Source: a virus (lineage: Duplodnaviria > Heunggongvirae > Uroviricota > Caudoviricetes). From it: 45,136 bases of DNA. Of the stretch, positions 1-24,342 are shown in pieces. The position numbers and the translations under genes were made by a program. Position 1 is the stretch's first letter. Each line of letters begins with the position of its first letter. The DNA is taken from the IMG/VR virus record IMGVR_UViG_3300035502_000495; one strand, written 5' to 3'. The notes under the pieces were generated by a model, which saw only the letters and a program-made list of their open reading frames with translations, did no database searches and was not told where the DNA came from.

Positions 1-2
1 AA

Positions 3-33
3 AAAGAAGTCTTTTCAGACCTCTTTATTTTTT
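3..33 (-). terminator. intrinsic terminator
   Basis: Minus-strand AAAGAGGTC-TGAAAA-GACTTCTTT hairpin plus T-run directly after the stop at 34; same family as 1698 and 4591. Confidence 0.75.
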
Positions 34-297
34 CTATTGTTCATAAAATGCGTTACCTTCTAAATCTGTAATTGCCATTAAATCACCTGAACCTTTAATA
101 ATAGTCAGATTTTCGTGTTCTTTAAAAGACATTTTTTCTTTAAGGTTTTCGATATATTCATCAATATCCTTTTCTCTTCCCTCTTTATCCTCATAAATAA
201 TAGAAGTTCCATATTGATTTGTATATTCGTTACTTTCAAACATGGTCTCATCAATATCTACTAATACATCAAAACTTACAGTTGCAATTGCTTTCAT
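34..297 (-). CDS. hypothetical early protein (87 aa, acidic)
   Basis: ORF with AGAGAGG RBS, own promoter at 352-380 and terminator at 1-33. Confidence 0.85.
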   Translation of the reverse strand: MKAIATVSFDVLVDIDETMFESNEYTNQYGTSIIYEDKEGREKDIDEYIENLKEKMSFKEHENLTIIKGSGDLMAITDLEGNAFYEQ

Positions 298-389
298 TTT
301 AAAATCCTCTCTTTCTTTTTTAAAAGTTTATTTGTTTCATTTGATATATTTATTATAACACTTTATCTTTTGTATGTCAATAGTTTTTA

Positions 390-704
390 TTATTTTTTTC
401 TATGTTTTGTAAGAGTAATTGAATAATCATTATTACCAATTTTAATTTGAATTTCATGTTGCGGATTAATAATTTTAATTTCATCAGCTATTAGCATTTC
501 AGCAATTACTTTAATAATTTCTACTTTTTCAGTATCAACTTTTAATGTGCGGTTTGCAGGTTTTTTGCTCTTAATATCTCCCTCATATCGCCTACCATTT
601 GATTTATTTTTTAATTCCATTTCCGCAGCTTCTTCTTTTGTTACTGGTTCACCATCAGCTTCACATTCTTCCATAATTTGTTTGATTAATTTCTCTTTAT
701 CCAT
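390..704 (-). CDS. hypothetical early protein (104 aa; start moved to MDKEK)
   Basis: GAGAGAGG RBS precedes the ATG at 704; promoter at 737-765. Confidence 0.85.
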   Translation of the reverse strand: MDKEKLIKQIMEECEADGEPVTKEEAAEMELKNKSNGRRYEGDIKSKKPANRTLKVDTEKVEIIKVIAEMLIADEIKIINPQHEIQIKIGNNDYSITLTKHRKK

Positions 705-798
705 TGTTTTAACCTCTCTTTCCTTTTGATATATTAAGTATATCATACTTTCATTTTAATGTCAATAGGAAATTTGCGACGTGCAAAAAAGACAAGTG

Positions 799-1518
799 TT
801 ATTTAAACACCTGTCTCAATTCTAATTCTTTTCTTTTCTTTTGTGGCAACCGCCAACAAGCTGTATTAATAGATTTATCCATTTTCTTATGAGTGGCAAA
901 ACATTTTGCCATAATTTCAACTTCAATTTCTACATCTTCTAAACCTGTATGACTTTCTACAAAATCAGTATAATTTGTAAGATATTTATAACAACATTCT
1001 GCCGAAGTTTGAATGTTATTTTTTTCACTAACTAATCCATTCTGTAAAGCAAATTTTATATATGTAGTTCTATTTAGCACAGTTTGGCAAGCCATGTTCC
1101 AAATACAAAAGTATTCAGTCCCAAAAGGAAAAAACCACCTAATTAATGATTTACTATGATAGCGAATTGCATTGTTTAAAGCTCTTTTATCAAAGCCCAT
1201 GTTATAAGCACCAACTTTTTTAATTTTCCATGCTTTCATGTCAGTATGTACTTGTTTTCTGATATTAAAAATAGATTTAATTGTTCTGTCACCATTTTTA
1301 ATATCTTCCCAATATTGAGGAATTTTTTCAGCGAAATATGCACTTTTCATCATTTCTTGATTATCCAAAAAAGTTTCCGCAACTACATAACTTCTTCTTA
1401 AAACAATGTTACCTTTTCTATCTGTGATTGCATATCCAACATCATAAGGTAGTGGCTGTTCAATTGTGTTCGCTGTTTCTGTGTCAATTACTAAAAAGTA
1501 TTCTTTTCTTCTTCCCAT
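799..1518 (-). CDS. DEDDh (DnaQ-like) 3'-5' exonuclease
   Basis: ExoI motif VIDTET, ExoII YNMGFD, ExoIII HTGLED. Confidence 0.85.
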   Translation of the reverse strand: MGRRKEYFLVIDTETANTIEQPLPYDVGYAITDRKGNIVLRRSYVVAETFLDNQEMMKSAYFAEKIPQYWEDIKNGDRTIKSIFNIRKQVHTDMKAWKIKKVGAYNMGFDKRALNNAIRYHSKSLIRWFFPFGTEYFCIWNMACQTVLNRTTYIKFALQNGLVSEKNNIQTSAECCYKYLTNYTDFVESHTGLEDVEIEVEIMAKCFATHKKMDKSINTACWRLPQKKRKELELRQVFK

Positions 1519-1639
1519 GTTTGTTTACCTCTCTTTTTATTTGATATATTTATTATACATCTTTATGGGAAAATAATCAATATACAAAATACACAAAAAT
1601 GCGGAAGAAAATTTGTTGAATATGTATATTGACAGGAAC

Positions 1640-1677
1640 TGGCAGGCTGACGTAGAGTAGCGTACGTCAGCCTGCCA
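1640..1677. repeat. conserved-loop hairpin E1 (15-bp perfect stem, loop GAGTAGCG)
   Basis: TGGCAGGCTGACGTA-GAGTAGCG-TACGTCAGCCTGCCA. Confidence 0.95.
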
Positions 1678-1697
1678 CCCAATTTAGCAAAAAGAAA

Positions 1698-1719
1698 GAG
1701 AGGTCTGAAAAGACCTCTC
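1698..1719 (-). terminator. intrinsic terminator
   Basis: GAGAGGTCT-GAAA-AGACCTCTC with a plus-strand A-run to its left (U-tract on minus), after the stop at 1724. Confidence 0.85.
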
Positions 1720-1723
1720 AAAT

Positions 1724-1927
1724 TTATGCTTCGTAAAATACTAAATCTCCATTATATACAGATGAAATACTTGTTTTTGTAATTTCGCCATGCGTATTTT
1801 TTAAATATTCTTCTAGAAGATTACATTCATCATCAGAAATATTATCTCTTACCTCGATAAAAGGTTGAATAATATCAACTGGGATATCAATAATTTCATC
1901 TGTAAATTTTGTTACTTTTAATTTCAT
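1724..1927 (-). CDS. hypothetical early protein (67 aa)
   Basis: ORF with GAGGTG RBS, ends at a terminator. Confidence 0.8.
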   Translation of the reverse strand: MKLKVTKFTDEIIDIPVDIIQPFIEVRDNISDDECNLLEEYLKNTHGEITKTSISSVYNGDLVFYEA

Positions 1928-1931
1928 ATTT

Positions 1932-2168
1932 TTACACCTCTCTTATATTATCAATTGTTAATTCTGCTGATACTTTTGTAACAAACTTTTCTGTAGGAAT
2001 AAAAAAAGTGTTCCCTATTTCTAAATCAACTGTATTTTGATATTCATTATCAACTTTTGTATCATTAATTTTCATACAAATAAATGGTCTTGTACCCCAT
2101 AAGAATACATCTCCAACACTTAAATCATCAAATTTTGTTTGACCTGTATATTTATTATTAATTTTCAT
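1932..2168 (-). CDS. hypothetical early protein (78 aa)
   Basis: ORF with GAGGAG RBS, in an operon with its neighbours. Confidence 0.8.
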   Translation of the reverse strand: MKINNKYTGQTKFDDLSVGDVFLWGTRPFICMKINDTKVDNEYQNTVDLEIGNTFFIPTEKFVTKVSAELTIDNIREV

Positions 2169-2171
2169 AAT

Positions 2172-2330
2172 TTAATTTCTCCTCTTATCTGAAATTGGAT
2201 TTAATAAATATTCATCTTTTAATTTAGTATATTTAGGTTGCGGACTTATACCTAAAACCTTTCCTAGTCCAACTGCCTCTTGATATGAAATTACCTCTTT
2301 ATTTCCTACTACATAAGTTAATTTTGTCAT
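2172..2330 (-). CDS. small hypothetical protein (52 aa, MTKLTYVVGNKEV..RRN), absent from the ORF track
   Basis: GAGAGG RBS, promoter at 2368-2396, stop abuts the next gene. Confidence 0.75.
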   Translation of the reverse strand: MTKLTYVVGNKEVISYQEAVGLGKVLGISPQPKYTKLKDEYLLNPISDKRRN

Positions 2331-2406
2331 TTTAAAATTCCTCTCTTTCTTTTTATTTTATATATTTATTATAACATTTTATCTTTTGTATGTCAAGTAT
2401 TTTTAT

Positions 2407-2667
2407 CTATTCTTCGTATAATACACACCCATTATATTTATCATTGCTTTCATTGCTTAGAATGTAAACCTCATTTAAACACATTGCTGTACTATCTAAG
2501 CCATATTTTTTTGAAATTTCATTAATAATATAATTATATAAATTATTTTCATCTATTCTATCAGTAACATAATCATTTGTATCACATGCCTTTAAATAAG
2601 GCTCAATAGTTGTTTTATCAGCTATATCTAATTTTATCGAAGCTCTTAATTCTACTTGTACTTTCAT
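2407..2667 (-). CDS. hypothetical early protein (86 aa)
   Basis: RBS and promoter at 2698-2726. Confidence 0.85.
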   Translation of the reverse strand: MKVQVELRASIKLDIADKTTIEPYLKACDTNDYVTDRIDENNLYNYIINEISKKYGLDSTAMCLNEVYILSNESNDKYNGCVLYEE

Positions 2668-2754
2668 ATTTATACCTCTCTTTCATTTGATATATTTATT
2701 ATACTACTTTATCTTTTGTATGTCAAGTATTTTTTTAAATTTTTTCTTTATTAT

Positions 2755-3024
2755 CTAATCTCTTTTGTAGTTCCTCAACTTCTTTATTTGTTTTTCCCAT
2801 AAGTTCCAATTTTTATAAGCGTAATTCATAATCTCTACAGCGTGTTGTACAAACATTTGTTTACTAGCAATTTCACATAACCATTGGAATACTTGATAAA
2901 TTTCAATTACATAAGGACTTTTTTCAAAGTCTGAAAAATGATATACAGTGTCGGGGTGCTTAGTGCTACCACCCCAACATTCACATACTAAATCATTTTC
3001 ATTATTTTTAAAAATCCTAACCAT
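2755..3024 (-). CDS. hypothetical early protein (89 aa)
   Basis: RBS and promoter at 3070-3098. Confidence 0.85.
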   Translation of the reverse strand: MVRIFKNNENDLVCECWGGSTKHPDTVYHFSDFEKSPYVIEIYQVFQWLCEIASKQMFVQHAVEIMNYAYKNWNLWEKQIKKLRNYKRD

Positions 3025-3066
3025 TTTTTGTTACCTCTCTTTTCTTTTTTATTTATCTTATATATA

Positions 3067-3255
3067 TTAATTATAATAAAATTCTTTTAATTTGTCAAGT
3101 GTTTTTTCATTTTCTTTTTTTAATTGATACATTCTATTTCCTAAACAAAACAGGCAACCGCCATGACAGCGACAACTTTTATCAATTTGCTCGCAGTATT
3201 TATAATAAGGTTTTCTGTGTTCCCTCCCATATTTGATAGCTTTATCCATGCTCAT
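3067..3255 (-). CDS. small basic Cys/His-rich (putative Zn-binding) protein
   Basis: CRCHGGCLFC motif; RBS; promoter at 3287-3315. Confidence 0.75.
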   Translation of the reverse strand: MSMDKAIKYGREHRKPYYKYCEQIDKSCRCHGGCLFCLGNRMYQLKKENEKTLDKLKEFYYN

Positions 3256-3374
3256 TTTTATTTACCTCTCTTCCTTTTCTTCATATAGTATACACCTAAT
3301 ACGGGATTTTTACAATAGGCAAATAGACAAATTTTCTGCGGAAAATTTATGCAACATTACTACTTGACAGGACT

Positions 3375-3412
3375 TGGGTCGCTCACATAGAGGAGCGTAT
3401 GTGAGCGACCCA
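3375..3412. repeat. conserved-loop hairpin E2 (15-bp perfect stem, loop GAGGAGCG)
   Basis: TGGGTCGCTCACATA-GAGGAGCG-TATGTGAGCGACCCA. Confidence 0.95.
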
Positions 3413-3418
3413 TGCAAG

Positions 3419-3447
3419 AAAAGCCTTGGGAATTTTCCAAGGCTTTT
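3419..3447. terminator. intrinsic terminator (possibly bidirectional)
   Basis: AAAAGCCTTGG-N7-CCAAGGCTTTT downstream of 3513..3923. Confidence 0.8.
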
Positions 3448-3512
3448 AATTTATTCATTTATTAAATTTTTATTAAATTTGCAAGGCGGATTTGCTCCGC
3501 CTTGCTTTTCTC

Positions 3513-3923
3513 TTAGGCAAGTGAGAAAAATGCCTTTTTCTTATCCTCGGTTCTTACAACCTCATTTGTAGCACACAATTTCTTAACTAGTGCTGATAGT
3601 TTCTGATTTGTCATGGTCTTAGTTTCAGTACCTTCTACATAAGTCTTTAATCTATCATCAGTCATAAGCTCTGAAATTGTAACAGGCTTATCAGTTTCAG
3701 CAAGAACAGTCTTAATAGTATCTAGGATAGCTTCATTTGCCTGCTGTGTCTTAGTGTTACCACTCTTATTAGATTTCTTCTGTAGAAGTTCAACCTCATG
3801 GTCGATAAAAGCTAAGATGTCGGCTTTATTAGCGGTTTCCACACTTTCTACAATATTTCTTACCATTTCGAAATACTGTGCCTTTGTTACCTTTACTACC
3901 TTTGTTGTGTTTGTGTTTGTCAT
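3513..3923 (-). CDS. putative winged-helix DNA-binding protein (136 aa)
   Basis: C-terminal KPVTISEL..TNQKLSALVKKL..VVRTEDKKKAFFSL resembles a wHTH; preceded by tandem promoters. Confidence 0.6.
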   Translation of the reverse strand: MTNTNTTKVVKVTKAQYFEMVRNIVESVETANKADILAFIDHEVELLQKKSNKSGNTKTQQANEAILDTIKTVLAETDKPVTISELMTDDRLKTYVEGTETKTMTNQKLSALVKKLCATNEVVRTEDKKKAFFSLA

Positions 3924-4126
3924 AATTCATTACCTCTTTCTTTCTTTAAAATTATTTGTTTTTGTTTCCTTTAATATATTTATTATATCATTTCTTTATT
4001 CAGTTGTCAAGACTTTTTTTAAAAATCTTTTTAAGATTTTTCTTTTCTCTTTTGTTTTTCTATATATTTATTATACTATTTTATTTTTTGTTTGTCAAGA
4101 GTTTTTTATTTTTTTTGTTGTGGGAA

Positions 4127-4279
4127 TTACTTTACATAATTCCCAGCAACTGCCTTGAGGCTCCCATCAGGATTGAAAAAAATAACATTATCTTGAATAA
4201 CTCTAATTCCTTTAGCTCTTGCCTCAGCTCTAAAAACATAATCACTTTTATACTTTTTTAAAAAATCTGCTTTACTCAT
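4127..4279 (-). CDS. small hypothetical protein (50 aa, MSKADFLKKY..NYVK), absent from the ORF track
   Basis: AAGAGGT RBS; promoters at 4316-4344 and 4412-4440. Confidence 0.75.
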   Translation of the reverse strand: MSKADFLKKYKSDYVFRAEARAKGIRVIQDNVIFFNPDGSLKAVAGNYVK

Positions 4280-4498
4280 TTTTGTTTACCTCTTTCCTTT
4301 TCTTTTTATATATTTATTATATCATTTCTTATAAGGTTTGTCAAGACTTTTTTTAAAATTTTTTATTTTTTTCTTGGTGTTGTTTCTGTCTTTCCCTTAC
4401 CTTATATAAATATTATACTAAAATTTTTTATTAATTACAATAGTTAAAATGACTAAAATTATAGGATTATTTTTGTGTATTTTTTTTATTAAAAATCC

Positions 4499-4527
4499 TT
4501 GACAAAAAGTGCGGCGAGTGGTATAAT
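4499..4527 (+). promoter_or_regulatory. perfect plus-strand sigmaA promoter, back-to-back with the early promoters and pointing into hairpin E3
   Basis: TTGACA-17-TATAAT with extended -10 TG. Confidence 0.8.
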
Positions 4528-4536
4528 AGAATTTTC

Positions 4537-4570
4537 GGGCAGCCACGTAGAGCAGCGTACGTGGCTGCCC
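4537..4570. repeat. conserved-loop hairpin E3 (13-bp perfect stem, loop GAGCAGCG)
   Basis: GGGCAGCCACGTA-GAGCAGCG-TACGTGGCTGCCC. Confidence 0.95.
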
Positions 4571-4590
4571 CGTCAAGAATAAAAAAGAAA

Positions 4591-4614
4591 AGAGAGGTCT
4601 GAAAAGACCTCTCT
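4591..4614 (-). terminator. intrinsic terminator
   Basis: AGAGAGGTCT-GAAA-AGACCTCTCT overlapping the stop of 4613..4921; U-tract on minus. Confidence 0.85.
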
Positions 4615-4921
4615 AAGCATAATCACCCTCATTATCTTGCCATTCTTCTTTTGTAATGATATCAAAATTACCCCAACAATCTGACCTAAAAAATTCTTGC
4701 GCCTGCTCGATAGCGTCATCATAATCTTCTAAGGTTTCATAGTCATCACTATCGATATCTTCTGTTGCTAAATACATTAATGACTCTGTATGGTCTTGGA
4801 CTAATTCATCTAAGTATTCATTCAAATGTTCTTTTGTTTGCTCTTGTTTAAAACAGATATATTTATCCTCATCAAAACCGCAGTAAGGAGTTGTTAAATA
4901 AAAATGAACGTATTGTTCCAT
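4613..4921 (-). CDS. highly acidic small protein (102 aa), DNA-mimic candidate
   Basis: 30 D/E versus 5 K/R by manual count; GAAGGTG RBS. Confidence 0.8.
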   Translation of the reverse strand: MEQYVHFYLTTPYCGFDEDKYICFKQEQTKEHLNEYLDELVQDHTESLMYLATEDIDSDDYETLEDYDDAIEQAQEFFRSDCWGNFDIITKEEWQDNEGDYA

Positions 4922-4941
4922 ATTTTCACCTTCTTTCTTTT

Positions 4942-5022
4942 AGGGCTGAACTTCTTTTCCTAAGCAATCAACTTCTTTACCAAGAAATCAATCGCCTGTA
5001 CTTGTTAGAAGTCCGACACCCT
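4942..5022 (-). ncRNA. structured RNA A (G.U-containing hairpin, leader or sRNA)
   Basis: Starts just after promoter 5035-5063; 8+5-bp outer stems enclose a 14-bp hairpin with 4 G.U pairs; no ORF. Confidence 0.6.
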
Positions 5023-5059
5023 TTATTTATATTTATTATATCATTTTATTTTTCTTTTG

Positions 5060-5302
5060 TCAATAGATTTTATCAATTTTCATTGTTGTAATAGAAAAAC
5101 AGTCTATAGGAGATAAACGACACACATCTTCTAATCGGTAGTATTTTCCATTTTCATCAAAAAAATCATCATCAGTTCTTTCAGCAATTTTAGTATTAAT
5201 ACAATTTTTAGCTTTTTCTTCAGTTGTAAAAATACCTATCGCTTTTTCACAACCATTTGCTATGTCAATGCACTCATTAACTATATACAATTTATTTATC
5301 AT
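5060..5302 (-). CDS. hypothetical early protein (80 aa)
   Basis: ORF with AGAGAGG RBS. Confidence 0.8.
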   Translation of the reverse strand: MINKLYIVNECIDIANGCEKAIGIFTTEEKAKNCINTKIAERTDDDFFDENGKYYRLEDVCRLSPIDCFSITTMKIDKIY

Positions 5303-5353
5303 ATTTGATTGCCTCTCTTTTATTTGATATATTTATTATAGCATTTTATTTTT

Positions 5354-5575
5354 TTATTTATCGCCCCATTTTAATTCAACTTTTCCAAAAGTTATTTTAC
5401 AAGTAATAAGAATAAAAAGAAGTTCTTTATAACTTAAAATTGGAATACAAGCAAAATATCCATTAAGAATAATTAATACTTGTTTAATTAATAATGGTGG
5501 AATAGCAATAAAGATAATTAATACTAATATTAATTTAACAATGCTATTTACTATTTTTATATACTCTTCGTTCAT
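5354..5575 (-). CDS. small membrane protein (73 aa)
   Basis: Two hydrophobic segments; RBS; promoter at 5609-5637. Confidence 0.75.
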   Translation of the reverse strand: MNEEYIKIVNSIVKLILVLIIFIAIPPLLIKQVLIILNGYFACIPILSYKELLFILITCKITFGKVELKWGDK

Positions 5576-5697
5576 TTTTTTGTTACCTCTCTTTCATTTG
5601 ATAATATAAGTATATCATAATATAGGATTAAGGTCAATGTACAGAATAACTAAAATTTTGGTAAAAAATTTGTGCAACATTACTACTTGACAGGAAC

Positions 5698-5735
5698 TGG
5701 CTCAGCAACGTAGAGTAGCGTACGTTGCTGAGCCA
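5698..5735. repeat. conserved-loop hairpin E4 (15-bp perfect stem, loop GAGTAGCG)
   Basis: TGGCTCAGCAACGTA-GAGTAGCG-TACGTTGCTGAGCCA. Confidence 0.95.
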
Positions 5736-5748
5736 CTCAAAAGAAAAA

Positions 5749-5764
5749 AGAGGCTCAAGCCTCT
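5749..5764 (-). terminator. intrinsic terminator
   Basis: AGAGGC-TCAA-GCCTCT with U-tract on minus, after the stop at 5778. Confidence 0.7.
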
Positions 5765-5777
5765 CTTAATAAACTAT

Positions 5778-6167
5778 TTACATTTTTAAACCTCTTTCCA
5801 TAAGATATTGTATAGCCTTTTCACTGTCAAACCAGTTTAAAACGACTGATAAAGGTGGATTATCCTCTTTAAATTCGACAGTCATATACATATTATCTAA
5901 TTGTTTAGTTTTCCATTCTTTTATGTCTTTGATATGTTTTATTGTCATTGAATTAAAAAATGCAATTACTTGACCTTTTTTAAATTGCCATATATTAAAA
6001 GGTAAAAATATCCCATACTTACTATAATTTTCTTTTAAATTATCCCATGTAAAATAAATTTTTTGATTTTGGATATTTTTTTCATCTGCCAAAGTTCTAT
6101 TTGTAAAAGAGCTTATTAATTCATCTTTATAGTAAAATTTAAAGAACCCTATATAAAAATTTGTCAT
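5778..6167 (-). CDS. hypothetical early protein (129 aa)
   Basis: ORF with AGAGAGGT RBS. Confidence 0.85.
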   Translation of the reverse strand: MTNFYIGFFKFYYKDELISSFTNRTLADEKNIQNQKIYFTWDNLKENYSKYGIFLPFNIWQFKKGQVIAFFNSMTIKHIKDIKEWKTKQLDNMYMTVEFKEDNPPLSVVLNWFDSEKAIQYLMERGLKM

Positions 6168-6171
6168 TTTA

Positions 6172-6297
6172 TTACCTCTCTTTTTTCTTTAATTCTTTTA
6201 ATTTGTTAATTTGTTCGCCATATGTTGGCGGTTTGCCATTTACCGCTTTATATCTCCATATCCAGTTATTTAGAACTTGTTGAATTTTATCTGTCAT
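6172..6297 (-). CDS. small hypothetical protein (41 aa, MTDKIQQVLNNWIWRY..KKER), absent from the ORF track
   Basis: Promoter at 6332-6360; GAAGG RBS-like sequence; stop lies in the RBS of the next gene. Confidence 0.6.
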   Translation of the reverse strand: MTDKIQQVLNNWIWRYKAVNGKPPTYGEQINKLKELKKKER

Positions 6298-6363
6298 AAC
6301 CGCCAACCTTCTTTCTTTTCTTTATATATTTATTATACTACTTTATTTATCATTTGTCAACAG

Positions 6364-6642
6364 TTATTCTTCAACCACTGTTAAAAAATTTAAACATTTA
6401 GATTTTTCATCATACAAAATATGCAAGTGTCCTTCGTCTGCCACACATTTCATAGTAGAGTGATTAATGACTTCTAACATTGTTAAGTCAGACATTTCTA
6501 CATTTTCTTCTAAAGATACGCTATCTACAATATGTGGGATTATGATTTCATTCTCCGACTTCTCAATAAAATCAACTTCCATGAATGATAAAAAATTTTT
6601 AATTCTAGCAAAACTATTTCTAATAAAAATATTGTGTTCCAT
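6364..6642 (-). CDS. hypothetical early protein (92 aa)
   Basis: ORF with AGAGGT RBS. Confidence 0.8.
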   Translation of the reverse strand: MEHNIFIRNSFARIKNFLSFMEVDFIEKSENEIIIPHIVDSVSLEENVEMSDLTMLEVINHSTMKCVADEGHLHILYDEKSKCLNFLTVVEE

Positions 6643-6728
6643 TTTATTACCTCTTTCTTTAAATGTTTTTTGTTTACATTTATATTATCTCTTTTGTATG
6701 TCAAGCATTTTAATTAAATCTTTTTCTA

Positions 6729-7196
6729 CTAGTTGCGATATTCCGCAACTAGTAAATCAACTAATTTAATTAAAATATTTTCATTTGCATTAATTGTATC
6801 GCCTAAATTCCAACCAATTCTGATTTTTTCATTGTCATCTATTAAAATTTGATAGCCGCCCTTTTTTCTAGTGCAATCGGCTTTTGTAGTGCCATATTTT
6901 ACAAGATGAATTTCATCATATGGAAACTGATATTTTGCAAGCCATTCTTTTTTTGCTTTTCTAACTTTTTCATCATATTCTTTTGAGCTATCTTTTGCCA
7001 ACCAACTTGTGATTACAATTTCCCAACCATTAGTTTTTAATAATCCTAAGATACTTGCAAGCGTGTCCATATCATACATTGGTTTTGCAATTTCATATGG
7101 TCTTGCATTTTCACTTCTCAAATCAACTAACCAATTTTCAACTCCATATAAATTTGCTAAAGTGCCGTCCATGTCAAATACTAATACTTTATTCAT
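6729..7196 (-). CDS. HAD-superfamily phosphatase, 5'(3')-deoxyribonucleotidase-like
   Basis: Motif I FDMDGT, motif II ITS, motif IV LIDDN. Confidence 0.8.
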   Translation of the reverse strand: MNKVLVFDMDGTLANLYGVENWLVDLRSENARPYEIAKPMYDMDTLASILGLLKTNGWEIVITSWLAKDSSKEYDEKVRKAKKEWLAKYQFPYDEIHLVKYGTTKADCTRKKGGYQILIDDNEKIRIGWNLGDTINANENILIKLVDLLVAEYRN

Positions 7197-7289
7197 TTTT
7201 ATTACCTCTCTTTTCTTTTCTTTATATATTTATTATAATACTTTATTTTTTATTTGTCAATAGTTTTTTTGAAAAAAGCTAAATTTTTT

Positions 7290-7736
7290 TTATTTAGCTT
7301 TTTTCAATTTTTCTAGCGTTCTTTCAACTACTATTTGAGCACCATTAAATTTAATTTGCACTTGTTTACCATTAATTTCTAAATCACCACTTACATAAAA
7401 TGGTACATTGTCTTTACCTCTAAATTCTTGACCATTCATTTCAGAAATAATTTTTTCAAACTGTACACCCTTATTATAATCACCATTTAAAATGTTTTCA
7501 TTTCCAATTGATACAGCTCCTTTTTTAATTAATTGTTTTTGATAATTTTGAGGCAATCTTAATTGTAATTTTGCACAACCGCCCTTTTTACTACTTTCAT
7601 GCTCAACTCTCATGTATCTTGGCATAATTTCGTTAACTTCTATCATATAAACTTCATGTTTATAAATAAATCCTAAAATATAGCTATCTGCGGCTGAAAA
7701 TTTTCTATAATTTCTAATCATTGTTTGTTTTGTCAT
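7290..7736 (-). CDS. hypothetical protein, possible PD-(D/E)XK-like fold (148 aa)
   Basis: NKGVQFE..SGDLEINGKQVQIK pattern; RBS; promoter at 7771-7799. Confidence 0.55.
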   Translation of the reverse strand: MTKQTMIRNYRKFSAADSYILGFIYKHEVYMIEVNEIMPRYMRVEHESSKKGGCAKLQLRLPQNYQKQLIKKGAVSIGNENILNGDYNKGVQFEKIISEMNGQEFRGKDNVPFYVSGDLEINGKQVQIKFNGAQIVVERTLEKLKKAK

Positions 7737-7832
7737 GGTCTTTTACCTCTTTCCTTTTCTTTATATATTTATTATAGCACGTTTAATGTGACTTGTCAAC
7801 TACTTTTTTAAAATTTTTTTATTTTCCCCAAT

Positions 7833-7911
7833 GGGGCTGTCAGTCACCTTAAACCAACCGCCTAGCCATATACTAAACGACCAATCCAAGTAGTGTGACC
7901 TCCGCAACCCC
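7833..7911 (-). ncRNA. structured RNA B (79-nt G.U-rich hairpin)
   Basis: Own promoter at 7933-7961; 7-bp, 6-bp and 19-bp stems, the last with 10 G.U pairs; folds only on the minus strand. Confidence 0.7.
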
Positions 7912-8020
7912 TTTCCTTTATCTTATATATATATTATACTCCCACCAACCGCAGAAGTCAATATACAAAATGACTAAAATTTCGGGATAAAATTTATGCA
8001 ATTTTTTTCATCTTTTTCTC

Positions 8021-8049
8021 TTGACAAAAGTTGCTGGGTATGATATAAT
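8021..8049 (+). promoter_or_regulatory. perfect plus-strand sigmaA promoter pointing into hairpin E5
   Basis: TTGACA-17-TATAAT with extended -10 TG. Confidence 0.8.
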
Positions 8050-8058
8050 AGATTTTTC

Positions 8059-8094
8059 GGCGTGCTGGCGAAGAGCAGCGTCCGCAAGCACGCC
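8059..8094. repeat. conserved-loop hairpin E5 (14-position stem with 2 mismatches, loop GAGCAGCG)
   Basis: GGCGTGCTGGCGAA-GAGCAGCG-TCCGCAAGCACGCC. Confidence 0.9.
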
Positions 8095-8111
8095 TTGGAA
8101 AATAAAAAGAA

Positions 8112-8134
8112 AAGAGAGGTTTTTAACCTCTCTT
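8112..8134 (-). terminator. intrinsic terminator
   Basis: AAGAGAGGTT-TTT-AACCTCTCTT, U-tract on minus, after the stop at 8139. Confidence 0.85.
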
Positions 8135-8138
8135 ATAA

Positions 8139-8363
8139 TTAATTTTTAATTAAGCCTTCATTAATAAGTATTTCATAAAACAATTTGCAAGTATCTTTAT
8201 ATTCTTCATCATTTTCAGCTATATATTTATAATCATTTTCACTAGCTTCATCTGGTACACCTTCAGCAATCCATAATTCAAAATTTTCTTCATCTTGCAC
8301 TTCATCTCTTATGTATTTATCCATACTTTTTAAACACTGTACCTTTGCTTCTATTATTGTCAT
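8139..8363 (-). CDS. acidic hypothetical early protein (74 aa)
   Basis: RBS, promoter at 8398-8426, terminator. Confidence 0.85.
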   Translation of the reverse strand: MTIIEAKVQCLKSMDKYIRDEVQDEENFELWIAEGVPDEASENDYKYIAENDEEYKDTCKLFYEILINEGLIKN

Positions 8364-8444
8364 TTTGTTTACCTCTCTTTCCTTATCTTATAAATATATT
8401 ATAATATAAATTTGTAAGTATGTCAATCCTTTTTATAAAATTTT

Positions 8445-8564
8445 TTAAATTATTTTAATGTAAAATAATCCATTACTAATTGAATAAGTAAAATCATACT
8501 GATTAACTTCTAAAAATCTTTTCACTTTTTCAAATGCCTCTCTATTTGTATACATTATTGCCAT
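8445..8564 (-). CDS. small hypothetical protein (39 aa, MAIMYTNREAF..IKII), absent from the ORF track
   Basis: AGAGAGGT RBS; promoter at 8596-8624. Confidence 0.7.
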   Translation of the reverse strand: MAIMYTNREAFEKVKRFLEVNQYDFTYSISNGLFYIKII

Positions 8565-8631
8565 TATATTTTACCTCTCTTTTCTTTATATATTTATTAT
8601 AACATTTTATCTTTTGTATGTCAAGTATTTT

Positions 8632-8820
8632 TTATTCTTCTTCCATTTCATTTTCAATGTAGCTTTCAAATGTATTAAAGCCTGTTCTAGCATATACTAT
8701 ATTATCTAATATTGTGTTCCAATCGCCATTACAAATACATCTAACTAAATTAATTTCATTTGCGGTTGCAATTCCATATTCTATTATCATATCATATTTA
8801 ATACATTCGTTTGTGTTCAT
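8632..8820 (-). CDS. hypothetical early protein (62 aa)
   Basis: RBS; promoter at 8857-8885. Confidence 0.8.
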   Translation of the reverse strand: MNTNECIKYDMIIEYGIATANEINLVRCICNGDWNTILDNIVYARTGFNTFESYIENEMEEE

Positions 8821-8899
8821 TTTTTATTACCTCTCTTTTCTTTTCTTTATATATATAGTATACACCTTGCTATTTATATTGTCAAGACTTTTTTTAAAT

Positions 8900-9083
8900 T
8901 TTCTTGAGCGGGAGTCGAACCCGCATTTACATTGTGCGTCGCATTAAGGATTACCACAGTATATTTATGTACCCAATTGTACAACCTTGCCTATCACCTG
9001 CTACCTGTTTCGCCATGAATTTACATAGGAATCGAACCTACACAGACAGAACGCCAACAGCTTTTCCATTAAGCTATCAAGAA
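8900..9083 (-). ncRNA. tRNA-shaped RNA with a 109-nt insert in place of the anticodon loop
   Basis: Acceptor stem TTCTTGA/TCAAGAA, D-arm GCTT-AATGGAA-AAGC, 9-bp anticodon-position stem, T-arm GCGGG-TTCGACT-CCCGC; second T-arm inside the insert; own promoter at 9108-9136; no encoded CCA. Confidence 0.7.
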
Positions 9084-9147
9084 ATAATTAATTTATTTTC
9101 TATAATTATAATACCATGTTTTTATTAATTTGTCAATAGTTTTTTTA

Positions 9148-9291
9148 TTATTTTTTATAAGTATACATAATAGTAAAGCCTGTTCTTACATCAGTATACA
9201 TTGTGCAAAAAGCAATGTTTGGATTATTCTTTACTTTATTATAATAATTAATCATTTGACCTTTGAATTGGAATGTTTTTGTATATGTCAT
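9148..9291 (-). CDS. small hypothetical protein (47 aa, MTYTKTFQF..TYKK), absent from the ORF track
   Basis: AGAGAGGT RBS; promoters at 9325-9353 and 9416-9444. Confidence 0.75.
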   Translation of the reverse strand: MTYTKTFQFKGQMINYYNKVKNNPNIAFCTMYTDVRTGFTIMYTYKK

Positions 9292-9570
9292 GGTGTTTAC
9301 CTCTCTTTCTCTCTTTCTATATTTATTATAGCACGTTTTCAGAAGTCTGTCAAGAGATTTTTTAAAAAAATTTTTTTATTTTCTATTCAGTTCTCTTTCC
9401 TTACCTTCTATATATAGTATACTACATTATACTAATAGAGTCAATATACAAAATGCACAAAATAAAATAATAAATTTTGTATAAAATGCTGAAATGCGGG
9501 AACCGCCTTACGAACCTAAGTTCTCGTTTTCTAACTGGAATTAGTTGCAACTAACCATGATAAGGCAAAA

Positions 9571-9593
9571 CGAAAGCTGCGCGGCAGCTTTCG
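9571..9593. repeat. GC-rich perfect hairpin (10-bp stem, GCG loop)
   Basis: CGAAAGCTGC-GCG-GCAGCTTTCG. Confidence 0.8.
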
Positions 9594-9730
9594 ACCCGCC
9601 CAATTGTTTGAATTTTAGGAACAAAATAAAAAAGACCAAAAAACTCGTTTTTCACAAAATTTTTCTAGCCTTAGGTATCTTGGAGCTGAGCCGACCCGCA
9701 CATGACCATGTACGAAATCGCTTGAAAGAA

Positions 9731-9898
9731 TTATTTCAAGAATGTAGCAATTGCTTTAAAACATACGTCCGCATTATCTTGAGAATGTGTATCTTCTTGT
9801 TCGCTGAAATAATTCATTGATGCATTAAGTAAATCTTTTACTGGTATAAACTCAAATACTAACTGTAATGCGGCGAGTTCATTCAAATTATTGCCCAT
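9731..9898 (-). CDS. small hypothetical protein (55 aa, MGNNLNELAALQ..TFLK), absent from the ORF track
   Basis: GGGAG RBS; promoter at 9935-9963. Confidence 0.65.
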   Translation of the reverse strand: MGNNLNELAALQLVFEFIPVKDLLNASMNYFSEQEDTHSQDNADVCFKAIATFLK

Positions 9899-10016
9899 TG
9901 CATAAACTCCCTTCTTTATTTACTTTATATATATATTATATAATAAATTTTTTAAAAAATCAATAAAAGAAAATTAATCAAGCTTTATAGAAACATAGAC
10001 CGACCGCCCGCATGAA

Positions 10017-10040
10017 AAGAGAGGTTGAAAAACCTCTCTT
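10017..10040 (-). terminator. intrinsic terminator
   Basis: AAGAGAGGTT-GAAA-AACCTCTCTT after the stop at 10043. Confidence 0.8.
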
Positions 10041-10042
10041 AT

Positions 10043-10315
10043 TTATTTCCAACCTCTTTCTTCTTTAATTTTTTCGTATCTCTCTTTATTCTCTTGCTCT
10101 ATCTTTTCTTTATCATATACTCTCATTTTTGTTTTTGTATATCCATACTGTGTTAATTCTCTATTACTCCAATATCTTTTATTACAAATTTTAATAATTC
10201 CGTCCTCTTGAATTTTCTTTTTATTATCTATAATATATTGTTTACTAGGAACTTCTACTAATGTACTAACTGGTTTATAACCTTGATTTGAAATTAATGT
10301 TACTTGAATTATCAT
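10043..10315 (-). CDS. hypothetical early protein (90 aa, basic)
   Basis: ORF with RBS and terminator. Confidence 0.85.
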   Translation of the reverse strand: MIIQVTLISNQGYKPVSTLVEVPSKQYIIDNKKKIQEDGIIKICNKRYWSNRELTQYGYTKTKMRVYDKEKIEQENKERYEKIKEERGWK

Positions 10316-10368
10316 TTTATTTACCTCTCTTTATATATTTATTATAATACGCTTAATTATAAGTTTAT

Positions 10369-10404
10369 TAAGATTTCAGCCTATTTATGAAGGCTGAAAT
10401 CTTA
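10369..10404 (-). terminator. terminator-like hairpin
   Basis: 14-bp perfect stem TAAGATTTCAGCCT/AGGCTGAAATCTTA overlapping the stop of 10385..10519. Confidence 0.6.
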
Positions 10405-10519
10405 TTATTTGCCCATGTTTTCTAATTTCTATTTTTTTCTCTTGAGCACTCATACCATGATACCATGCGTATGTTCCATCTTCAAATAAATACCAACCTT
10501 GTGTTTTTGTTCTTGCCAT
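10385..10519 (-). CDS. small hypothetical protein (44 aa, MARTKTQGWYLFEDG..FQPS), absent from the ORF track
   Basis: AGAGAGGA RBS; promoter at 10556-10584. Confidence 0.75.
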   Translation of the reverse strand: MARTKTQGWYLFEDGTYAWYHGMSAQEKKIEIRKHGQIIRFQPS

Positions 10520-10523
10520 AATT

Positions 10524-10910
10524 TTTATCCTCTCTTTCCTTTTCTTTATATATTTATTATATACCTTATTAGTTATGCTGTCAAGACTTTTTTAAAAATT
10601 TTTTTATTTTATTTAAGCTCCCAATTTCTGTTATTTATATAAATATTATTACCATAAAATTTTCCAATTGGTTCAGCGTTTTTTGCTACTATTCCAACGA
10701 TATCTGTCACTTTATTTTGACCCCAAAAGCCATCTCTATCTTGAGTATCTTCTACAAACTCTATTTCTGTATTATCGTCCATGTTTTTAATTATTTCCAT
10801 TAATTCTCTTTTTGTCATTTTTATTTATCCTCTCTTTCCTTTTCTTTATATATTTATTATATACCTTATTAGTTATGCTGTCAAGACTTTTTTAAAAATT
10901 TTTTTATTTT
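10524..10910. repeat. 87-bp perfect direct repeat (10524-10610 and 10824-10910)
   Basis: Identical RBS+promoter+UP block, 300 bp apart, flanking ORF 10609..10818. Confidence 0.95.
10609..10818 (-). CDS. hypothetical early protein (69 aa)
   Basis: RBS; promoters at 10856-10884 and 10947-10975. Confidence 0.8.
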   Translation of the reverse strand: MTKRELMEIIKNMDDNTEIEFVEDTQDRDGFWGQNKVTDIVGIVAKNAEPIGKFYGNNIYINNRNWELK

Positions 10911-10972
10911 TGTCTTGCTTTTTTCTTTTCTTCATCTTATGTATTTATTATAGCATTGTTTACTACATACGT

Positions 10973-11025
10973 CAATAGACAAAATACACAAAATACCGCT
11001 TTGCTTTTGTGCATTTTGTCTATTG
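10973..11025. promoter_or_regulatory. 53-bp inverted repeat (21-11-21); best-preserved copy of the motif upstream of module promoters
   Basis: CAATAGACAAAATACACAAAA-N11-TTTTGTGCATTTTGTCTATTG (arms 20/21 complementary); degenerate copies start at 1578, 3313, 4438, 5635, 7959 and 9442. Confidence 0.8.
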
Positions 11026-11075
11026 TTTTTATGTCAGTCTATTTTAAATTACATGTGTTATTTTATCCGCCCTTA

Positions 11076-11337
11076 AACTAGCAGTTAGTTGAACTAATAT
11101 AAATTAGTCTGAACTACTTTTTGTTAGTTCCAGCTTACATTAGTTAGTGGTATCTAACTGTAATGAGTTTACACTAATTTATAAGACAAAACTTTTTTAC
11201 TTTACATTTTAAGTTAGTCTAATCTAACTCAAGTTAGTTGCGACTAGTTCTAGTTAGTGATATCAATCTGGGATTAATCCTGCCTAACTTGAGTTAGCTT
11301 TTTCAAACAACAAATAATTGCAACTAACTCAAGTTAG
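11076..11337. repeat. CTAACT/AGTTAG iteron-like array
   Basis: CTAACT-NN-AGTTAG at 11224, 11284 and 11324, plus many half-sites. Confidence 0.85.
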
Positions 11338-13810: not shown

Positions 13811-14986
13811 ATGGAAAATAAAAATTCACTTCTTTCTGATGAAGAGTTTAATGATAAGATTCAAGAAAAAGCAGATAAAAAAATTGAAGAACAAATCATT
13901 GAAGAGAATATCAAGCCGACTAGGAAATTAGATTATTCTTTAAAAACACCTGAAGAAAGAAACGAATTAGTTAAAAAAATTATTGATGAAACTCCTCCTG
14001 AACAGCTTACTAACAGATATTTAGAAATTTTGAGCGATTATATTATTTTTGCTATGGATAAGAAAGAAAGACAACAAAAGAAAATTTTAACTGATAATAG
14101 AATGGTAACTGTAAACAAGAGAGAAACATCATTTCAAGGATTAGCAGGGCAGCTTGAAAATGGAGAAGATGGTATATATAATATGATTGCAAATGACAAA
14201 AATATTATTTTTACTCCAAAAATTGAGATTACTCAAAAGGATATAGATGAAATTCCTGCATTAAAAGATTTAGTTGCGGCAATTAAAGAAGTTGAAAAAC
14301 AAGCTAAGACGGCAACTGGTAAAAAGAAATTTTTATTAATGAAACAATTAATTGAAATGCGGAGAGACCAGTATGAAATTAGAAAGGCTTACCGCCAACC
14401 AATGTATTTTACAAATGCAATAAAAAGTTTTTCAAAGATGTCTTTTGATGAACATATAGAAATTACTCCAGAAGGAGAAATTAAGAGTAATGGACTAGTA
14501 TCATTCTTTAATCCGAAGCATATTTCTGCATTACTTTGTAATTATTCAAGATTAAAAGAAGATTCTTGGGGTAAGTTTTGGTCTGATTCTTATTTTTTAA
14601 TGGAAGATTTAGATAATTTAATTGAAAAAACTTTAAAAGATAAATACCCGCTTTATTACGATCTCTTGATTTATAAAATTGATGGGAAACCTAATGCGGA
14701 AATACAAAAATTATTATATGAAAAACATGGAATTAAACATTCAGTAGAATATTTATCATCTTTATGGAGAAATAAAATTCCTAAGTTATTGGCGGAGCAA
14801 GCTCAAGAAGATTATATAGATTGGTATTATTTAACACAAGAGTATGGTAAATATAAACGTTGCTCAAGATGTGGACAAATTAAATTAGCGGATAATAGAT
14901 TTTTTTCAAAAAATAAAACTTCAAAAGATGGATTTTACAGTATATGCAAGGATTGTAGAAACCATAAAACTAGCTTAAAGAAGTAA
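13811..14986 (+). CDS. putative DNA-binding/regulatory protein with an HTH-like region and a C-terminal Zn ribbon (391 aa)
   Basis: LLIYKIDGKPNAEIQKLL..SVEYLSSLW resembles a sigma-region-4 HTH; CSRC..CKDC; first gene of the morphogenesis arm. ORF is certain, function tentative. Confidence 0.5.
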   Translation: MENKNSLLSDEEFNDKIQEKADKKIEEQIIEENIKPTRKLDYSLKTPEERNELVKKIIDETPPEQLTNRYLEILSDYIIFAMDKKERQQKKILTDNRMVTVNKRETSFQGLAGQLENGEDGIYNMIANDKNIIFTPKIEITQKDIDEIPALKDLVAAIKEVEKQAKTATGKKKFLLMKQLIEMRRDQYEIRKAYRQPMYFTNAIKSFSKMSFDEHIEITPEGEIKSNGLVSFFNPKHISALLCNYSRLKEDSWGKFWSDSYFLMEDLDNLIEKTLKDKYPLYYDLLIYKIDGKPNAEIQKLLYEKHGIKHSVEYLSSLWRNKIPKLLAEQAQEDYIDWYYLTQEYGKYKRCSRCGQIKLADNRFFSKNKTSKDGFYSICKDCRNHKTSLKK

Positions 14987-23277: not shown

Positions 23278-24342
23278 ATGGCATTAAGTAAAGAAAATTT
23301 AATTGAATTAGCTAGAGCTAATGCTAGAGCTTCATTGAATCCTTCCGCAACATATTCTTTTGGCGATAAGGTTTTGTCTGGTGAGGCTCTTAATAATACT
23401 TTTATTAAAGAATTAAATGAGTTAGGAAATACTCCTCAAAATTTCCGAGAAAATCAGAATTTGATTTATACATTACTTGAAGTTGGTTTAACTGAGGTGC
23501 TCCCAGTTAAGGTTCTTCAAAATTATGGACAGTTTGCAGATGTTAAGACATACGCACAGGGTACAAAACCTGTATTTAAAGTTAATATTAGTGAAGCATC
23601 TAGAAAACGTGCTAAGCAGTTTGTAACAAAAGTAGGTTTAGCTGGTAGATATGAAACCTTCAAGCTTGATGGTTATACATTAGAAGTACCAACTAGCGCA
23701 TACGGTGGAGCTGCTAGAGTTGAGTGGGAAGAAATGCTCGATAAGAGATTTACACTTAATGATTATTATAGTTTAGTTCTTGAGGGACTTGATGAAACTA
23801 TTTATAGAGAAATTGCAAAGTCTCTTGAAGCTACTATAGAGAATATTAAGGCAATAAATAAGACAGTTCAATCTACTTTCTATGAGAAAGAAATGGATAG
23901 ATTACTTGCTACAGCAGATGCTTATGGTAAATCTACTATTTATTGTACTTTTGAATTTGCCTCTACTATGATTCCTCAAGAAGCATGGGCCTCAGATGCG
24001 ATGAAAGACCAAATTTGGAATAATGGTTATTTTACATCTTATAAAGGGCATAATGTAATTATTCTTCCTCAATCTTTTGAAGATGAGACAAATGCTCAGA
24101 AAGTAATTGACCCTTCAATTTGCTATATTATTCCTACTGGAGCTGAGAAGCCTGTAAAAGTTGCCTTTGAAGGCTCTGCTCAAGTTAAGTCTTTTGAAAA
24201 CCGCGATTGGTCTACAGAACTTCAGACATACCAAAAAGTTGGTGTTGCTACATATTTAGTAAATCCAGGCATTTGTGTATATAAGAATACTAGTCTAAGT
24301 AAAAGTAATAAAGGACTAGAAGATAATTATCAAGGGGTCTAG
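23278..24342 (+). CDS. major capsid protein (354 aa)
   Basis: Size, strong RBS, followed by a terminator, synteny. Confidence 0.75.
   Translation: MALSKENLIELARANARASLNPSATYSFGDKVLSGEALNNTFIKELNELGNTPQNFRENQNLIYTLLEVGLTEVLPVKVLQNYGQFADVKTYAQGTKPVFKVNISEASRKRAKQFVTKVGLAGRYETFKLDGYTLEVPTSAYGGAARVEWEEMLDKRFTLNDYYSLVLEGLDETIYREIAKSLEATIENIKAINKTVQSTFYEKEMDRLLATADAYGKSTIYCTFEFASTMIPQEAWASDAMKDQIWNNGYFTSYKGHNVIILPQSFEDETNAQKVIDPSICYIIPTGAEKPVKVAFEGSAQVKSFENRDWSTELQTYQKVGVATYLVNPGICVYKNTSLSKSNKGLEDNYQGV

Follow-up and report, generated by a model that had tools for sequence, protein, structure and literature searches.

The stretch analysed here, called the window throughout, comprises 45,136 nt of a tailed-phage genome (Caudoviricetes; IMG/VR record IMGVR_UViG_3300035502_000495) and corresponds to bases 26212–71347 of a 79.5-kb virus contig, whose numbering we use for positions given as genome coordinates. 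The contig has a G+C content of 29.6%, is linear according to its IMG/VR class and was estimated by CheckV to be ∼60% complete. The right part of the window carries, on the + strand, genes for a phage sigma factor, a terminase, a portal and a tape measure protein of 2796 aa; the portal is just 23–39% identical to those of the nearest cultured phages. The left 13.7 kb is an array of small open reading frames (ORFs) on the − strand, driven by many perfect TTGACA-N17-TATAAT promoters. The ORFs in the region of interest encode 40–240 aa, and Pfam matches are nearly absent from it, as from the whole array. This early array is punctuated by a family of GC-rich hairpins. Each proved to be part of a composite boundary module that is conserved in a clade of related phages, restricted to the early array, placed at the end of an operon and coincident with the seams of gene cassettes.

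An earlier note, made from the sequence letters, had described five of these hairpins, and we found all of them (E1–E5) where it had placed them, at 1640–1677, 3375–3412, 4537–4570, 5698–5735 and 8059–8094. Scanning the whole contig added two more just left of the window, E-1 (hairpin at genome 25232–25269) and E0 (genome 26159–26194). The family thus numbers seven copies, all on the + strand and within 9 kb of the early small-gene array, with no further family copy elsewhere in the 79.5 kb. Stem lengths range from 13 to 17 bp and the loops measure 8 nt. The geometry reported for E1, E2 and E4, a 15-bp stem with an 8-nt loop starting 5 nt after a TTGACA, was likewise reproduced; E3 has a perfect 13-bp stem and E5 a 14-bp stem with two mismatches. 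RNA folding of the five window copies gave −20.2 (E5) to −29.5 kcal/mol (E1, z = −7.4), with z scores from −2.5 to −8.5, and the two left copies, E-1 and E0, folded with −26.9 and −26.3 kcal/mol, respectively. With six occurrences in the window, the loop sequence GAGNAGCG exceeds the expected count of 0.82; the sixth match (21456) lies in coding sequence and has no stem.

Several tests indicated that these structures are not products of chance. Seven GC-rich hairpins in the contig passed a fixed filter (at least 9 pairs, at least 7 of them G–C, at most one mismatch), namely six family members and the terminator beside E2; E-1 failed it with two mismatches. The same filter returned 0–1 hairpins in 20 shuffles. 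When the seven copies were aligned without gaps, 92% of the cells were paired and 10 of the 15 pairs had changed on both sides, a covariation score reached by none of 500 shuffles, and sliding the partner columns by 1–3 as a control lowered pairing to 26–41%. The stems had been called fully covarying, which goes too far: partial conservation is seen at the stem base (GGC/GCC) and top (ACGTA/TACGT), and most of the compensated changes fall in the middle 6–7 bp. Eight columns (A15, G16, A17, G18, A20, G21, C22 and G23), together reading AGAGNAGCG, are invariant in 7/7 copies, leaving the fourth loop position as the sole free one. The loop is asymmetric and has one orientation in all seven copies. 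Among these paralogs, identity was 88–100% in the loop versus 33–80% in the arms and 40–77% in the flanks, which argues that the loop is under selection in this genome and supports the earlier idea of a signal made of structure plus loop. Also upheld was the near absence of G·U pairs, which extends to relatives: 37 module hairpins from eight genomes contained 424 Watson–Crick pairs, 2 G·T pairs, 4 A·C pairs and 15 other mismatches. Wobble pairs were not enriched on either strand among these 21 non-Watson–Crick positions, suggesting that pairing is maintained for both strands or at the DNA level. We conclude that the hairpins are a real, selected and repeated structure with a selected loop in this genome.

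Alignment of 250 nt around each of the seven copies revealed the anatomy of the larger module. Common to all are an A/T-rich AAAATTTGTGCAA-like block and a TTGACA hexamer on the + strand, and what follows falls into two types. Type II modules (E0, E3 and E5) contain a complete extended promoter, TTGACA-N17-TGnTATAAT, matching at 12/12 positions with the TG, and their stem starts 8–9 nt after the −10, that is, at or a few nt from the expected start site. From type I modules (E-1, E1, E2 and E4), 23–26 nt of spacer and −10 are absent, so that the stem begins 5 nt after TTGACA; in the alignment, spacer and TGnTATAAT show up as a 26-nt insert in the three type II copies. The perfect antisense promoters allow for transcription of these three copies. 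We also considered whether type I might be a true promoter, as TTGACA-18-TAGAGT in E1 and E4 matches at 10/12 positions; but the corresponding sequence is TAGAGG in E2 and GGAGAG in E-1, and relatives have nothing there, so there is no general type I −10.

The individual copies illustrate this arrangement. The E-1 module spans genome 25221–25269 and has the loop GAGAAGCG; the E0 promoter and hairpin occupy genome 26122–26194, with the loop region AAGAGAAGCGCC. The terminator hairpin after E0 opens the window (1–33) and, with an A-tract before and a T-tract after its stem, can work in both directions. E1 (1629–1677) consists of TTGACA (1629–1634), the linker GGAAC and a hairpin with loop GAGTAGCG; linker and loop are the same in E4 (5687–5735), whereas E2 (3364–3412) has the linker GGACT, the loop GAGGAGCG and a stem that extends to 17 bp with one mismatch. 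The promoter of E3 (module 4499–4570) reads TTGACA-N17-TGgTATAAT (4499–4527) and that of E5 (module 8021–8094) TTGACA-N17-TGaTATAAT (8021–8049); each is followed by 9 nt and a hairpin with loop GAGCAGCG.

On the left of each module, the −35 of the next operon's sense (− strand) promoter lies ∼48–59 nt from the module −35. These back-to-back sense promoters are located at 1552–1580 (TTGATT-17-TATAAT, 48 nt between its −35 hexamer and that of E1), 3287–3315 (E2, 48-nt gap), 4412–4440 (E3, 58-nt gap), 5609–5637 (E4) and 7933–7961 (E5, 59-nt gap). An imperfect palindrome, TTGCACAAATTT...AAATTTGTGCAA, separates the paired hexamers, so that module and sense promoters mirror each other. On the other side, 4–20 nt to the right of the hairpin, is the terminator of the preceding − strand operon; on the + strand, its stem is preceded by an A-tract and followed by few T. 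Such gene-strand terminators lie at 1698–1719 (20 nt from E1), 4591–4614 (E3), 5746–5767 (E4) and 8112–8134 (E5). Between E2 and the stop codon of a 136-aa gene are two terminator-like hairpins (3419–3505, + strand), the first capable of acting in both directions and the second with a T-tract on the + strand only. Read along the gene strand, the order is thus gene, terminator, GC hairpin, backward promoter, palindrome, forward promoter and next gene. The module promoters are antisense to the gene array and have no ORF behind them. No U-tract follows the family hairpins on either strand, and a terminator scan listed their neighbours and none of the family hairpins in the window. The palindrome, which can be written as TTGCACAAA(A)TTT-CGGGA-AAATTTGTGCAA, is found at 7962–8020, 4441–4498 and 1581–1628 and in every module; it is conserved across the related phages, with gaps of 48–50 or 57–59 nt, and may serve a dimeric regulator as the operator for both promoters, or act as an UP element that the two have in common.

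Relatives were retrieved using the sigma factor and a 239-aa early protein as queries, followed by further stretches of the same contigs. Homologous modules in the same context were present in at least seven related uncultured phage contigs (G001, G002, G003, G006, G007, G008 and G009). These retain the upstream block, the TTGACA, both module types and a GC-rich hairpin of 9–17 bp that starts with (Y)GGC. Across all modules, the stem begins 3–7 nt after the −35 (type I), 1–2 nt after the −10, or 7–9 nt after the −10 (type II), the last being the arrangement of most type II modules in the relatives. G007, a complete genome of 190 kb, has six clear promoter-linked GC hairpins, all within 10 kb and in the same orientation, as well as two looser matches with a TTGCCA-type −35 outside that cluster pattern. 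In several relatives, an A-rich linker between TTGACA and stem in type I modules gives, on the gene strand, a hairpin followed by AUUUUUUGUCAA, that is, an intrinsic terminator behind the first one. Hairpins in G007 (9151) and G009 (2080) are overlapped by a co-directional TTGACA-N17-TATAAT-GG promoter; transcripts from upstream would then include the whole hairpin and local transcripts would start inside it. A further unit with a co-directional promoter lies to the left of the modules described above (L085:1060–1250, genome ∼24060–24250, − strand): a 9-bp GC hairpin with the loop TCTTTAG begins 4 nt after TTGACA-N17-TATACT and gives way to ∼150 nt of GC-richer non-coding sequence. Units of this kind also occur in G002 (L083:688) and G003 (L084:11943), the latter with an identical loop, and probably represent a conserved non-coding RNA that starts in the hairpin.

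Conservation of the loop at homologous loci, proposed earlier as a touchstone for the signal, did not extend to most relatives. Their loops are mostly unrelated (CGTTCCA, GACCC, TCGTACG, AGGGTCG, TGCGAAAGTAT and others), and three close variants of one phage (L088, L089 and L090) have identical stems with single-base differences in the loop. Only G006, with 37% G+C over the 20 kb examined, shares the 18-nt tip ACGTA-GAGGAGCG-TACGT; it also has the related loops GTGGAGCGG and GTGAAGCGG, and its hairpins always lie 7–8 nt after a perfect promoter. Judged by these sequences, the GAGNAGCG loop is a lineage-specific feature of this phage and one other lineage and no clade-wide signal.

Comparison with the relatives and within the contig also bears on the suggestion that the hairpins mark cassette boundaries. 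In G001, the order of the blocks bounded by E2/E3 and by E0/E1 is reversed. A type I module flanks the 239-aa gene here, where G001 has a type II module, and homology ends at the stem. Furthermore, E-1 and its 136-aa gene are a duplicate of E2 and its 136-aa gene, with 73–76% identity (L085:2140–2850 versus window 3283–4040), making E2 and E-1 paralogs through cassette duplication. The arms of these two copies differ at 6/15 positions, all compensated except for two loop-adjacent mispairs in E-1, and their loops differ at the free position alone. Together with the position at operon ends, the reordered G001 blocks and the duplicated 136-aa cassette support placement at boundaries, and in these two cases sequence comparison identifies the modules as seams of cassette duplication and reordering.

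Database searches gave few matches. Megablast of window positions 1–9000 against a phage collection found none. Rfam yielded no match for the whole window at the gathering threshold; for 1–11100 at E values up to 10 there were weak, chance-level matches only, far below gathering scores. The type I pattern TTGACAGG-N14-20-AGAGNAGCG matched 65 loci in IMG/VR, none with a stem, and these were discarded as chance. The tip pattern ACGTAGAGNAGCGTACGT retrieved from IMG/VR one real module (L096, which is G006) and one probable chance match in two contigs, and from metagenome contigs one real match, identical to G006. The remaining metagenome matches were attributed to chance in GC-rich DNA or to a GTAGAGTAGC-type satellite. 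Three unrelated metagenome contigs (L113, L102 and L107) consist of this degenerate GTAGAGTAGC(GT)-type tandem satellite, whose chance match to the loop tip is a trap for motif searches.

Several other candidate identities were rejected. The stem arms as antisense guides had no second match in the 79.5 kb at up to two mismatches. A resemblance to a tRNA D-arm/anticodon-stem junction (UAGAGCAGCG), a CCA tail after the stem (regular in G003 only), Firmicute Chi sequences (AGCGG, GAAGCGG and GCGCGTG) in loops or stems of some relatives, and REP/RAYT elements were all dropped as inconsistent across copies. The loop is also not a late-promoter or phage-sigma motif: late-gene intergenic regions with a recognisable promoter have the ordinary TTGACA-N17-TATAAT. 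The upstream TTTGTGCA block is not a late-region motif either. It does build a near-perfect inverted repeat, CAATAGACAAAATACACAAAA...TTTTGTGCATTTTGTCTATTG (10965–11035), at the edge of an origin-like non-coding region, as it builds the promoter palindromes. Position 9440–9700 on the − strand, without a long ORF, opens with a module-type promoter/upstream block, ends at a terminator (9571–9593) and is likely a non-coding RNA, beside a tRNA-like element at 8900–9083. The phage sigma-factor gene itself (13811–14986; phrog_5767) has 45 C-terminal residues that match an endonuclease VII-type family (phrog_1035).

What could the hairpins do? Elements of a comparable build are known from T4-type phages as promoter-early stem-loops (PeSLs), in which a GC stem-loop accompanies a sigma-70 promoter with an AT-rich region upstream of it (Arbiol et al. 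2010, PMC2839356). Their authors distinguished five positions of the stem-loop relative to the promoter, located the elements among orphan early genes and proposed that they take part in the shuffling of modules (PMC2839356; Comeau et al. 2014, PMC4122927). The earlier statement that nothing of the kind had been described in a tailed phage therefore does not hold. The best explanation, in which we place about even confidence, is that the hairpins are the stem-loop half of promoter/stem-loop boundary modules punctuating the early array, a variant of the T4-type PeSL cassettes. At the three type II copies, host sigma-A RNA polymerase would start 0–5 nt before the stem, and the product would be an antisense RNA complementary to the 3′ end of the upstream operon, with a very stable 5′-terminal hairpin as a protective cap; the location of most type II stems, 7–9 nt after the −10, is that expected of a 5′-terminal hairpin. 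At the four type I copies, the hairpin may have been kept alone, where its structure would halt transcripts reading through from the upstream operon or stabilise their 3′ ends; the homologous hairpin of relatives, with its U-tract, is a plain second terminator. Folding in the transcripts of both strands, or as DNA, would explain the Watson–Crick-only pairing, and the invariant AGAGNAGCG loop is most likely bound by some factor.

Not everything agrees with this explanation. Here the hairpins lack a U-tract on either strand and do not resemble terminators, so that a terminator role is not borne out, and the module promoter, unlike that of a PeSL, is antisense with no downstream gene. Most modules have no dedicated + strand terminator behind them, which would be surprising if they produced a discrete small RNA. 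Stems are most perfect in the four copies without a −10, indicating that the hairpin is maintained independently of a complete adjacent promoter, and the lack of wobble enrichment is unusual for a purely RNA-level structure. Finally, the invariant loop is left without a reader, as no loop-binding partner was found. The mirror-image antisense promoter, the Watson–Crick-only stems and the lineage-specific invariant loop are unexplained by the PeSL model.

In a rival account, the hairpin is an RNA signal whose loop one phage protein recognises, much as in lambda nut/boxB, or it is a protein decoy. Either would partly overlap with the PeSL-like explanation, and we consider them possible though unlikely. 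The tip ACGUA/UACGU with the loop GAGNAGCG in nascent RNA would recruit a polymerase-altering factor, or the seven copies would titrate one. Consistent with this, the loop is invariant in all seven diverged paralogs, and the same tip with the related loops GUGGAGCGG and GUGAAGCGG always follows a perfect promoter in G006. The loops of boxB differ among lambdoid phages, much as the loops differ between phages here, and the free fourth position recalls GNR(N)A-type pentaloops, a resemblance only. A hairpin in the nascent RNA just after an early promoter is, however, predicted for 3/7 copies and all G006 modules and not for the four −10-less copies, which are without a usable promoter; polymerase would move antisense to the early genes, where there is no obvious target for antitermination; L088, L089 and L090 change loop bases freely while keeping their stems; and no partner protein was identified. 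Slightly less probable again, in our estimate, is a DNA cruciform. The GC palindromes, lying in AT-rich DNA, would extrude under negative supercoiling and might serve as a supercoil-dependent switch or roadblock at the antisense promoter, the type I loop falling at the would-be −10 position, or as the target of a junction-resolving nuclease that seeds cassette recombination. The retention of only Watson–Crick pairs without wobble bias on either strand among the 21 mismatches, the perfect 15–17-bp stems of type I copies lacking a −10, a range of hairpin positions that extends from directly behind the −35 hexamer to about +2, the AT-rich flanks (the genome is 30% GC) and the near-palindromic loops of some relatives (tcgtacg and agcgct) all point this way. 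On the other hand, most type II stems lie 7–9 nt after the −10, pointing to a link with the RNA start and not to DNA alone, and the asymmetric loop has a single orientation in 7/7 copies. For 15-bp GC stems, forming a cruciform in vivo is difficult on kinetic grounds. A nuclease specific for such structures or a polymerase that reads hairpins was not identified either; the one giant ORF is that of the tape measure protein.

The earlier note had pointed to a different parallel, the CS-6 loop of ssoA single-strand origins in rolling-circle plasmids, with an HUH nick site as a related possibility. NAGCGT is indeed present in 6/7 loops, all copies lie on one strand, and HUH sites likewise have a conserved loop on a variable stem; but TAGCGT proper occurs in just 2/7 copies, and the motif is missing from the homologous hairpins of most related phages, whose loops are unrelated. 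A tailed double-stranded DNA phage is not known to have an obligatory single-stranded stage. The element resembles ssoA in that its terminal loop contains NAGCGT, that it is strand-specific and that something like a promoter adjoins the hairpin (PMC5703833; PMC8860593), whereas it measures 38 nt versus ∼160 nt for ssoA (PMC5703833) and exists in seven copies, all of them associated with both a promoter and a terminator. Neither a Rep gene nor a double-strand origin was found: Y1_Tnp, Rep_1 and Rep_trans had no match in the 79.5 kb of this ∼60% complete record, where the Rep_1 control matched no control genome either. A single-strand priming site or HUH nick site is accordingly very improbable. 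The element is not a plasmid-type single-strand origin, and the CS-6 resemblance is most likely a coincidence; for annotation, this is a warning that a 6-nt loop match is insufficient for calling such hairpins replication signals.

If the PeSL-like explanation is correct, promoter/stem-loop boundary cassettes are not peculiar to T4-type coliphages and would be a recurrent way to organise and shuffle early "host-takeover" genes, the present example coming from large uncultured low-GC phages of an unrelated clade. The modules are also a compact test case for whether bidirectional early promoters need a structural cap, whether convergent short RNAs fence operons, and whether a cruciform is used with host polymerase. 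A bolder possibility, which we think unlikely, is that a dedicated phage factor recognises the hairpin tip (the 5-bp top with the invariant GAGNAGCG loop) and acts on the mirrored antisense promoters. Such a factor might, for example, form a nut-like switch by which polymerase would traverse each early operon in reverse and so shut it off, or be a cruciform-reading protein that gates both promoters of a pair. Either device would be a form of regulation not described for any phage.

Three known systems share part of this layout. As in lambda nut/boxB, a hairpin stands just after an early promoter and its loop is conserved within a phage but differs between phages; here, however, the stem is three times longer, transcription would be antisense and no boxA or N-like gene was identified. 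As with stabilising 5′-terminal stem-loops of bacterial RNAs and with lambda oop and other short cis-antisense RNAs, the type II hairpin lies within a few nt of the expected start, and its RNA would overlap with the convergent operon at the 3′ end of the latter, the differences being that the RNA here is a prediction only, that there is no clean antisense-strand terminator and that four copies lack a −10. The promoters of the N4 virion RNA polymerase are likewise early-region hairpins able to extrude from supercoiled DNA. They have 5–7-bp stems, 3-nt loops and a giant virion polymerase, in contrast to the 13–17-bp stems, 8-nt loops and sigma-A consensus promoters found here, and no N4-type giant virion RNA polymerase was seen in the sequence examined, the 2796-aa ORF encoding the tape measure protein.

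The closest counterparts are the PeSLs. This phage, with its very long tape measure protein and low-GC, sigma-A-type promoters, is unrelated to T4, and its modules differ in that the promoter is antisense, without a gene behind it, and paired back-to-back with a sense promoter around a palindrome. Its stems are 13–17 bp long and mostly perfect, without a U-tract, and carry one asymmetric invariant loop. Termination of co-directional transcription combined with a promoter for a gene with Shine–Dalgarno sequence and ATG is accordingly not seen in this phage, nor is the GC hairpin with U-tract of an intrinsic terminator. Shared with the PeSLs, in turn, are a consensus host-type early promoter with an AT-rich upstream region (complete in three copies, and as TTGACA with the A/T-rich block in all seven), a stable GC-rich stem-loop whose position varies by module (after the −35, over the −10 or just before the start site), many copies among small orphan early genes, likewise clustered in G007, and a place at the seams of gene gain, loss and reordering, albeit in few cases here. 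Among the relatives, moreover, several type I modules do form an intrinsic terminator on the gene strand, and the hairpins at G007 9151 and G009 2080 have the classic co-directional layout of a PeSL, with a promoter overlapping a hairpin and its U-tract that would both terminate incoming transcription and drive the following gene.

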